Origin: a virus
Taxonomy: Duplodnaviria > Heunggongvirae > Uroviricota > Caudoviricetes
DNA length: 6,136 nt
Strand: one strand, 5' to 3'
Virus record (IMG/VR): IMGVR_UViG_2778261249_000001
Location: 1-6,136 of that record
The notes under the pieces are model-generated. The model was not told the origin of the DNA. It worked only from the letters and a program-made list of their open reading frames with translations, and ran no database searches. Of this stretch, positions 3,257 to 4,117 are shown piece by piece. Each line of letters begins with the position of its first letter. Positions within the stretch are counted from its first letter, which is position 1. A program made the position numbers and the translations under genes.

Positions 3257-4117
3257 TCACCTGTCGAAAAACACGTAGCCAGTTTTCGATACGGTGATTG
3301 CGGATGATGGTTTGGATTGTGGTTGAATAGTTTCTGGCTTCTCGTCGTTCCAGCGCTGACCGTTCAGGTAGCTCGATGGTAACAACCTGTCGAATCCGAA
3401 CTGCTTACCATTCCTGCATGCGATGTCTTCTGCCAGCATCGTGGCAAACTCGCTTGCCGTACCCTTGGTAGTTTTACGCCATTCCCTGAACTGTGTTCTG
3501 AATGCCGTAGCTGCGTTTTTCTTCCCGGCTTTCCGCATGCCTGCACACCAGAATATTTCCTCGAATGCCTTGTCGGTTTCTTCGTGACGGTCAGGTGATT
3601 TTTCACACTCCGTCCGAACACTTTCGGACATAGTGTTTTTATTATTTCTTTTTTCTTTTGTAATAGTTTCTTTTGTGTGTCCCTGTTTTGGTGACAGCGC
3701 TGTCACCGTTTTGGTGACACTTTTTGTCACCAATGCAGTGACATTATCACCAGTGTAGTGACATCCTTCGATTTGCCATTCCTCGATGTTCTTGTTAGGC
3801 CCGATTTGCTGGCCTTCGCGAAGGATAACCTTCATCGCGATAAGCTCATTCTTGGCCTTGTTTACCTTCTGTCTTGGCAGCCTGGTAATTTGAGCTAACT
3901 GACTATCAGAGATGCGATCCATCTTTTTACCGTAGCCGTATGTTTTACGGCATATGGCGTGGGCAACCTTGCTCTGATTTTTCGTTAAATCAGCGCCGAT
4001 AAGCTCTTCATACAGGGCATTTGCAAGACGGGTATAACCATCTTCAACTTCTGCCACACGACGCTCCACAGGCCGTTGTGAAGGCCTTAAATGTGTTACG
4101 GTTGCAAGATTACTCAT
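3257..4117 (-). CDS. O: Replication initiator, lambda O family (N-terminal iteron-binding domain O-like, C-terminal domain diverged from lambda O)
   Basis: ORF-track ORF. The N-terminal part (…[27 protein letters not shown]…[22 protein letters not shown]…GPNKNIEEW…[14 protein letters not shown]…) aligns by eye with lambda O. The C-terminal 120 aa do not resemble the lambda O P-binding domain. AGGAG lies 8-9 nt upstream of ATG 4117. Confidence 0.9.
3635..3680. other. AT-rich tract adjacent to the iterons; candidate DNA-unwinding element of the phage origin
   Basis: gtttttattatttcttttttcttttgtaatagtttcttttgtgtgt is strongly A+T rich and lies immediately 3' of the iteron block in gene orientation, the same arrangement as lambda ori inside O. 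Confidence 0.55.
3690..3763. repeat. Origin iterons: about seven copies of GGTGACA/TGTCACC arranged as inverted pairs inside the O-like gene
   Basis: GGTGACAgcgcTGTCACC (3690-3707, perfect 18-bp palindrome), GGTGACActtttTGTCACC (3713-3731), AGTGACAttaTCACC (3737-3751) and AGTGACA (3757-3763). Heptamer starts are about 11-12 bp apart. They lie in the inter-domain linker of the O-like ORF, where lambda carries its ori iterons. Confidence 0.65.

Follow-up and report, generated by a model that had tools for sequence, protein, structure and literature searches.

In phage lambda, the replication origin lies within the gene of its own initiator, between the parts that encode the N- and C-terminal domains of the O protein. 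The iterons of this origin, which are imperfect inverted repeats of 19 bp, bind O dimers, and the binding opens an adjacent 40-bp A+T-rich region (PMC5043065, PMC7466680). The origin is bound by lambda gpO's 162 N-terminal residues (cited in PMC2629481), and ES18 and epsilon34 carry an N-terminal region that is 94% identical to that of lambda gpO according to the epsilon34 paper (PMC2629481). The present analysis concerns a repeat block at positions 3633-3763 of a 6,136-nucleotide stretch of viral DNA (IMG/VR virus record IMGVR_UViG_2778261249_000001, positions 1 to 6,136; the whole stretch is called the window here). As judged from its sequence, the block very probably serves a lambdoid prophage as its replication origin, and it is contained in the gene of the prophage's own O-like initiator (3257-4117, minus strand).

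Two further groups of origins are relevant to the comparison. The Stx phages 933W and P27 have O-type origins inside the O gene as well, and the number of iterons in such phages can vary (six; PMC7466680); these phages have lambda-type arms and O/P, whereas the window has the canonical four iterons. The iteron origins of theta plasmids (Rep/pi-type) resemble the block in that replicon-specific initiator sites stand beside an AT-rich unwinding element, but their iterons are direct repeats bound by initiator monomers (PMC5043065). In the window, each unit is an inverted repeat, dyad-symmetric like the dimer-bound sites of lambda (PMC5043065), the initiator is of the Phage_rep_O type, and the sites, unlike theta-plasmid iterons, lie within the coding sequence of the initiator. 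The equivalent stretch in the curated records of ES18 and P22 is annotated as a rep_origin 'similar to lambda'. The comparison supports the assignment of the element to the textbook class of O-type origins, with a different arm sequence and, in all likelihood, a different recognition specificity.

Anatomy of the repeat block and its lambda counterpart

The O-type initiator has 286 codons and matches Phage_rep_O (PF04492) over amino acids 20-114 with an E-value of 1.2e-37 (128.8 bits, cutoff 28.7) and TIGR01610 (phage_O_Nterm) with 105.3 bits (cutoff 45.5); its PHROG label is 'replication initiation O-like'. The N-terminal origin-recognition domain (amino acids 1-118) is encoded at 3764-4117 and the C-terminal domain at 3257-3640, both on the minus strand. 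The repeats occupy codons 119-147, directly after the Phage_rep_O match and between the two domains. A repeat finder resolves them into four 19-bp dyad iterons of the form TGTCACC-N5-GGTGACA with a constant 5-bp centre. All are read here on the minus strand, in the direction of the gene. Iteron 1 (3745-3763; gene-sense TGTCACTACACTGGTGATA, plus strand TATCACCAGTGTAGTGACA) is the furthest from the AT-rich tract and has two mismatches to the dyad consensus, iteron 2 (3725-3743; gene-sense TGTCACTGCATTGGTGACA, plus strand TGTCACCAATGCAGTGACA) has one, and iteron 3 (3701-3719; gene-sense TGTCACCAAAACGGTGACA, plus strand TGTCACCGTTTTGGTGACA) is a perfect dyad. Iteron 4 (3678-3696; gene-sense TGTCACCAAAACAGGGACA, plus strand TGTCCCTGTTTTGGTGACA) abuts the tract and carries a T-to-G change in its right arm. 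The spacings from iteron to iteron are 20, 24 and 23 bp in the gene direction. An AT-rich tract of 46 bp had been described beside the repeats in a first-pass annotation of the window; it was found with 45 bp at 3633-3677 (minus strand; gene-sense CACAAAAGAAACTATTACAAAAGAAAAAAGAAATAATAAAAACAC; about 20% GC). This presumed DNA-unwinding element adjoins the iterons towards the C-terminal coding part of O and is A-rich on the sense strand, and the GC fraction of 3625-3674 is 0.22.

For the positional comparison, 13 phage O-type genes were anchored on the box CACAAAAGA, which is present in all of them about 430-465 nt into the gene (554 nt in PhiR26_1, which has an extended N-terminus). Its position is constant in the 13 phage genes, and 25 of 27 genome loci, which are described below, have it there as well. 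Iterons 1 to 4 of the window lie at -86, -66, -42 and -19 from this box, and the offsets are the same in lambda, where the iterons start at 1049, 1069, 1093 and 1116 of the sequence used (L009) with spacings of 20, 24 and 23 bp. In the other anchored O genes, the iterons are at or near these offsets. Hence the window shares with ori-lambda four 19-bp dyad iterons, their spacing and their distance to the AT-rich tract; the two match almost completely in the AT box (the first 33 bp or so of the tract) and at the right end of iteron 4, and the N-terminal domains of O are 53-54% identical. The arms differ, being ATCCCTC/GAGGGAT in lambda and TGTCACC/GGTGACA in the window, and a search of the lambda sequence with the arm consensus of the window, and the reverse search, gave no match either way. 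The earlier statement that the iterons are unrelated to those of lambda thus holds for the arms only: the architecture and the spacing are homologous to lambda, as are the AT box, the AAAAC centre that is frequent in the units and the right-hand end of iteron 4. The proposal of origin iterons inside an O-like gene is itself supported by the Phage_rep_O and TIGR01610 matches together with the lambda-like place, number, spacing and AT box.

The register of the units needed correction. All seven half-sites reported near 3690-3757 are present at their starts, with exact copies of GGTGACA or its complement at 3690, 3701, 3713 and 3725 and one mismatch each at 3737, 3745 and 3757; an eighth, degenerate half-site, TGTCCCT, stands at 3678-3684. 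Successive half-sites are spaced by 12, 8, 12, 12, 12, 11 and 12 bp. The phasing by one helical turn that had been suggested is only approximate, with a mean half-site spacing of 11.3 bp and iteron spacings of 20/24/23. The half-sites had been grouped into inverted pairs of the form GGTGACA-N4-TGTCACC, the first of them an 18-bp palindrome. The exact palindrome exists at 3690-3707, but the pairing does not stand: it yields pairs of 18, 19 and 15 bp and one orphan half-site, while TGTCACC-N5-GGTGACA, with the eighth half-site included, accounts for the unit. Among 22 related genes, which were chosen only by protein identity in the 80 upstream codons and the presence of the CACAAAAGA box, the palindrome, which is the junction of iterons 3 and 4, is perfect in only four, and its GCGC spacer is not conserved (GGGT, GGGC, ACCC, GCCA and others). 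The four-unit register is preferred because the 19-bp O-binding units of lambda fall at exactly those offsets.

The statistical weight lies in the arrangement of the half-sites. Taken over the whole window, the 7-mer half-site with one mismatch shows no enrichment (24 matches for 17 expected, with 12 of 200 shuffles reaching 24). The dyad TGTCACCNNNNNGGTGACA with up to three mismatches has five matches against 0.24 expected, a number reached by none of 200 shuffles, and four of the five abut one another at 3678-3763. Since the 7-mer alone is unenriched and the dyad cluster is beyond all shuffles, it is the clustering, and not the 7-mer count, that is significant. The fifth match (3029-3047, three mismatches), within the primase-helicase gene, was rejected as a further site, as stray matches across loci occur at about the chance rate and it is absent from ES18. 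This weak dyad match is also found in Sf101, mEp043 and locus L017.

Iterons 1 and 4 merit separate mention. The right arm of iteron 4 is AGGGACA and not GGTGACA in almost all of the 22 relatives, and 18 of them keep the exact iteron-4 sequence of the window; the conserved deviation resembles the end of lambda iteron 4 (AGGGGGA), which among the lambda iterons is the one bound least strongly (PMC7466680). In iteron 1, the arm TATCACC (3745-3751) coincides with a lambda operator half-site, a likeness that had been taken for chance. This view fits the data, as among the relatives this arm of iteron 1 is the one that varies most, and the motif occurs twice in the window against 0.56 expected (26 of 200 shuffles reach 2). 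Binding of cI at 3745-3751 was considered and rejected, the motif being absent from the cI/cro intergenic region of this phage.

Dyads of this kind may also be read as RNA or DNA hairpins, for example as terminators of a plus-strand antisense transcript, instead of protein-binding sites, and a consensus scan does flag 3689-3708 and 3701-3719 (plus strand) as terminator-like, with a stem and then a T run. Dyad iterons whose centres are A-rich, however, produce such calls by their very nature. No upstream plus-strand promoter-like site was found in 3200-4400, a scan of the window at the Rfam gathering threshold gave no match to the iteron palindromes or to any other part of it, including a hairpin at 4313-4340, and the homologous lambda iterons are established protein-binding sites. 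In addition, the arms change as a block with the N-terminal domain of O, which hairpin function does not require. The hairpin explanation is scarcely credible on this evidence.

Constraint on the DNA and specificity of the arms

The block does encode, as had been noted, a repetitive linker, namely a low-complexity VT(K/A)-rich linker between the two domains of O, and this is the point in favour of the idea that the repeats were selected as a flexible peptide, the DNA symmetry being incidental. The iterons, however, begin at codon positions 1, 3, 3 and 2; three frames are thus used to read one and the same DNA word, and the four copies encode different peptides, including SPKQGH. Among the 22 relatives, the encoded peptide varies and the arms do not, and the consensus of their 88 iterons is TGTCACYAAAACRGTGACA. 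The pairwise identity at third codon positions is 0.867 in the arms versus 0.484 in the sequence coding for the N-terminal domain (Mann-Whitney p=7e-8), and the arms are kept equally at the three codon positions (0.91/0.96/0.87), with no codon periodicity. Likewise, the arms as a whole reach 0.91 versus about 0.71 for the central and inter-iteron spacers (p=2e-5). Because third positions are kept in the arms and decayed in the adjacent coding sequence, and because the word is read in three frames, the conservation pattern indicates that the constraint acts on the DNA and not on the protein linker, and selection for the peptide is very unlikely to explain the repeats.

The comparison of iterons across homologous O genes, which the first-pass annotation had proposed, gives seven arm types among the 13 phage O genes, each matching an N-domain group. 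The window, PhiR12_1 and Proteus V3 have TGTCACC/GGTGACA; Citrobacter phage Omnitron has TGTATCC/GGGAACA, Midgardsormr38 and phiEt88 have TGTTACC/GGTAACA, and Pocitis76 and Bas106 have TGTCTCC/AGAGACA. The remaining types are ATCCCTC/GAGGGAT (lambda and ES18), TTTACC/GGTAAA (P22 and PhiR26_1) and TTAGCC/GGCTAA (mEp213). The origins of P22 (gene 18), HK97/mEp213, phiEt88, Midgardsormr38, Omnitron, Pocitis76 and Bas106 share with the window the CACAAAAGA box, the four dyads and the offsets, but the arms are particular to each N-domain group (TTTACC, TTAGCC, TGTTACC, TGTATCC or TGTCTCC). The closest arm groups differ from the arms of the window by one or two bases only.

Pairs of genes in which one half of O is shared and the other is not separate the two domains. 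For example, the window and PhiR12_1 have an N-terminal domain that is 100% identical and the same iterons, and their C-terminal domains are unrelated, PhiR12_1 having the C domain of lambda followed by P. Similarly, lambda and ES18 share an N-terminal domain (99%) and iterons, with unrelated C domains. Conversely, the window and ES18 are 95% identical in the C domain and 56% in the N domain, and their iterons are different (TCCCTC arms of lambda type in ES18); PhiR26_1 and lambda are 96% identical in the C domain and 49% in the N domain, and again the iterons differ. These alignments indicate that the arms follow the N-terminal domain of O and not the C-terminal domain. They also lend support to the distinct initiator-origin specificity that had been suggested, as the arms co-vary with the N-terminal domain across relatives.

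A wider scan was made with the 118-residue N-terminal domain against one genome per species, with loci chosen by protein similarity alone. It returned 27 loci from at least 16 enterobacterial genera, with 39-100% identity. Three to eight dyad-consensus matches are found within the 160 bp after the N domain in 25 of the 27 loci, with almost none elsewhere in about 2.7 kb, and the spacing of 20/24/23 is kept in 19 loci. Of the other two loci, one is a 48%-identical gene whose arms are of HK97 type, and the second is a disrupted gene. An Arsenophonus prophage (locus L040, 678-862) has an expanded array of eight dyad-consensus matches, which recalls the six-iteron Stx phages, and two other loci of the TGTCACC class (L032 and L035) have three such matches only.

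Within the N-terminal domain, residues 80-92 (codons at 3842-3880, minus strand) are a candidate recognition segment. The segment is unchanged in all 22 sequences of the TGTCACC class, and in the aligned set, where the 11 GTCACC-class sequences are likewise unchanged, it differs in every other arm class. When columns were strictly required to be invariant within the TGTCACC group and absent from all other groups, H120 alone remained, a residue that the iteron itself encodes; it is only as a whole that the segment of amino acids 80-92 tells the arm groups apart.

Apparent exchange of O halves and a putative initiation mechanism

The two halves of O appear to have been exchanged around a short shared block. 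The segment 3645-3690 (about 45 bp; -13 to about +32 from the box) spans the right half of iteron 4 plus the initial 33 bp of the AT tract. Its sequence is almost the same in the window, lambda, ES18 and PhiR12_1, and the flanks are dissimilar or unrelated. Phages of the ES18 type lose homology to the window at 3690, within iteron 4, and the PhiR12 homology starts at 3645. The block looks like a site of crossover at which the halves of O are swapped. The PhiR12 phages cannot be claimed as laboratory recombinants of lambda and mEp043, an origin that would have amounted to functional evidence, since their neighbouring genes differ from both parents; a literature search on where the PhiR12 phages came from gave nothing relevant.

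The module closest to the window on the C-terminal side is that of ES18, epsilon34 and g341c (gp59, O-like, and gp61, a primase-helicase). It agrees with the window at 95% identity in the C-terminal domain of O, and it shares a small downstream open reading frame, the T7 gp4-like primase-helicase, the AT tract and an imperfect inverted repeat just past the tract. The repeat (3605-3618 and 3623-3636; two 14-nt arms, 86% complementary, with a 4-nt gap) lies within the coding sequence for the start of the C-terminal domain. The ES18 module differs in that both its N-terminal domain (99% identical to lambda) and its iterons are of lambda type. In mEp043, Sf101, ES18 and epsilon34, the same C domain and the T7 gp4-like primase-helicase are inherited as a pair. 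In Stx2a phages, the window-type C domain forms a fusion with an N-terminal helix-turn-helix domain of quite another kind that has direct repeats of its own. The 'replication protein O' of Stx2a_F403 (locus L044, about 1320-1390, minus strand) has a linker with three direct repeats of GGTGGGGCAGGAGCTGCCC and is without dyad iterons and the AT box; its homology to the window stops at 3641.

The O protein of lambda has a C-terminal domain unrelated to that of the window (28% identity over 43 amino acids), and lambda uses P and host DnaB, whereas the window is without a P gene and has a 35-amino-acid reading frame and then the primase-helicase in its place; the lambda order of a lambda-type C domain followed by P is thus absent from the window. 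Because the C domain is unrelated and there is no P gene, the helicase step would have to differ from that of lambda, and since the C domain and the primase-helicase are inherited together, the former is the presumed recruiter of the latter.

On the lambda model, dimers of the O-like protein would bind the four iterons of consensus TGTCACYAAAACRGTGACA via the N-terminal Phage_rep_O domain and would bend the DNA, and the nucleoprotein complex so formed would open the adjacent 45-bp AT-rich tract on supercoiled DNA. The C domain of O would then recruit the phage's own T7 gp4-like primase-helicase (1269-3149) in place of the P and host DnaB of lambda. The binding of O, its dimer stoichiometry, the unwinding and the recruitment of the helicase are extrapolated here from lambda biochemistry.

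Two more tentative proposals are made, in which our confidence stays a little below even. In the first, segment 3645-3690 may be both the unwinding element and a preferred crossover, at which an N-terminal domain with its iterons is exchanged against a C-terminal domain with P, a DnaB-like helicase or a primase-helicase. In the second, the graded arms (TGTCACC, TGTTACC, TGTATCC and TGTCTCC) together with the changes in O residues 80-92 may represent a readable natural recognition code for this initiator family.

The sites may instead bind O mainly as a regulatory or titration array, serving autoregulation or copy control, with replication starting elsewhere. The replicon is without P and uses a T7 gp4-like enzyme, and no mapped origin was found for this primase-helicase class; moreover, the iterons are not all alike, and some Stx-phage iterons are weakly bound and yet required (PMC7466680). 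However, the iterons of the window abut a conserved AT-rich tract with the sequence and the distance of the unwinding element of lambda. The same N-terminal domain, iterons and AT box also work with a lambda-type C-terminus and P in the PhiR12 phages, which according to their deposition were propagated on E. coli K-12 or C. A mainly regulatory array is, hence, quite unlikely.

Several points weigh against the assignment of 3633-3763 as the origin, or against parts of it. Iterons 1 and 4 each deviate at 2 of 14 arm positions. The recruitment of the primase-helicase, in which the window departs from lambda for want of a P gene, is deduced from no more than the co-inheritance of that enzyme with the C domain. 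The records of the near-identical phages Sf101, mEp043 and SEN22 carry no rep_origin feature, a literature search gave no experimental report of binding, unwinding or origin mapping for these three, and no description of the TGTCACC iteron sequence was found in the searchable literature. With respect to the recognition segment, a single-sequence AlphaFold model of O amino acids 1-125 has a mean pLDDT of 44 and is unusable for placing a recognition helix, and no relevant solved relative came up in the PDB, whether the query was the whole O protein or a 16-sequence profile.

With the origin assignment, a likely origin and its recognition sequence are now given for a module of Shigella and Salmonella phages and of prophages in many other enterobacteria. 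They may be used for rep_origin annotation, for predicting the incompatibility or cross-activation of co-resident lambdoid prophages, and for orthogonal initiator/origin pairs in engineering. The understanding of how O-type origins work is unchanged.

Genomic context

The window corresponds, in reverse orientation, to the region of a lambdoid phage or prophage that holds the immunity and replication genes. A cI-like repressor with HTH_3 and Peptidase_S24 domains is encoded at 5029-5688 on the plus strand, and the other genes are on the minus strand, beginning with a Cro-like protein (4702-4905; HTH_3). The cII reading frame as listed spans 4289-4642 (117 amino acids, from an upstream ATG), and the real cII gene is probably 4289-4582 (Phage_CII, 9e-48), on the basis of the start of the Pfam match and the lambda-like sequence. 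A DUF2740 reading frame (4110-4256; PF10872) precedes the O-type initiator. The C-terminal domain of O belongs to phrog_33384; as stated above, its identity to the corresponding part of ES18 gp59 is 95%. Between O and the primase-helicase stands the 35-amino-acid reading frame (3146-3253; phrog_21848, 4e-26), in the position of ES18 gp60. The T7 gp4-like primase-helicase (1269-3149) has Toprim_2, DnaB_C and AAA_25 domains, matches phrog_239 (DNA primase/helicase) with 2e-171 and carries the annotation of ES18 gp61.

The O gene of the window is 98.5-99% identical to the O genes of phages Sf101, mEp043, SEN22 and vB_EcoP-720R6. The N-terminal half of O with the repeats is found in 175 of 5426 complete E. 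coli genomes (about 3%).

A strong terminator-like hairpin, with a 12-bp stem and then a T run, is present at 4313-4340 on the plus strand, antisense to the 3' end of cII. In the P22 record, the oop terminator is annotated at the corresponding place, the 3' end of c1.

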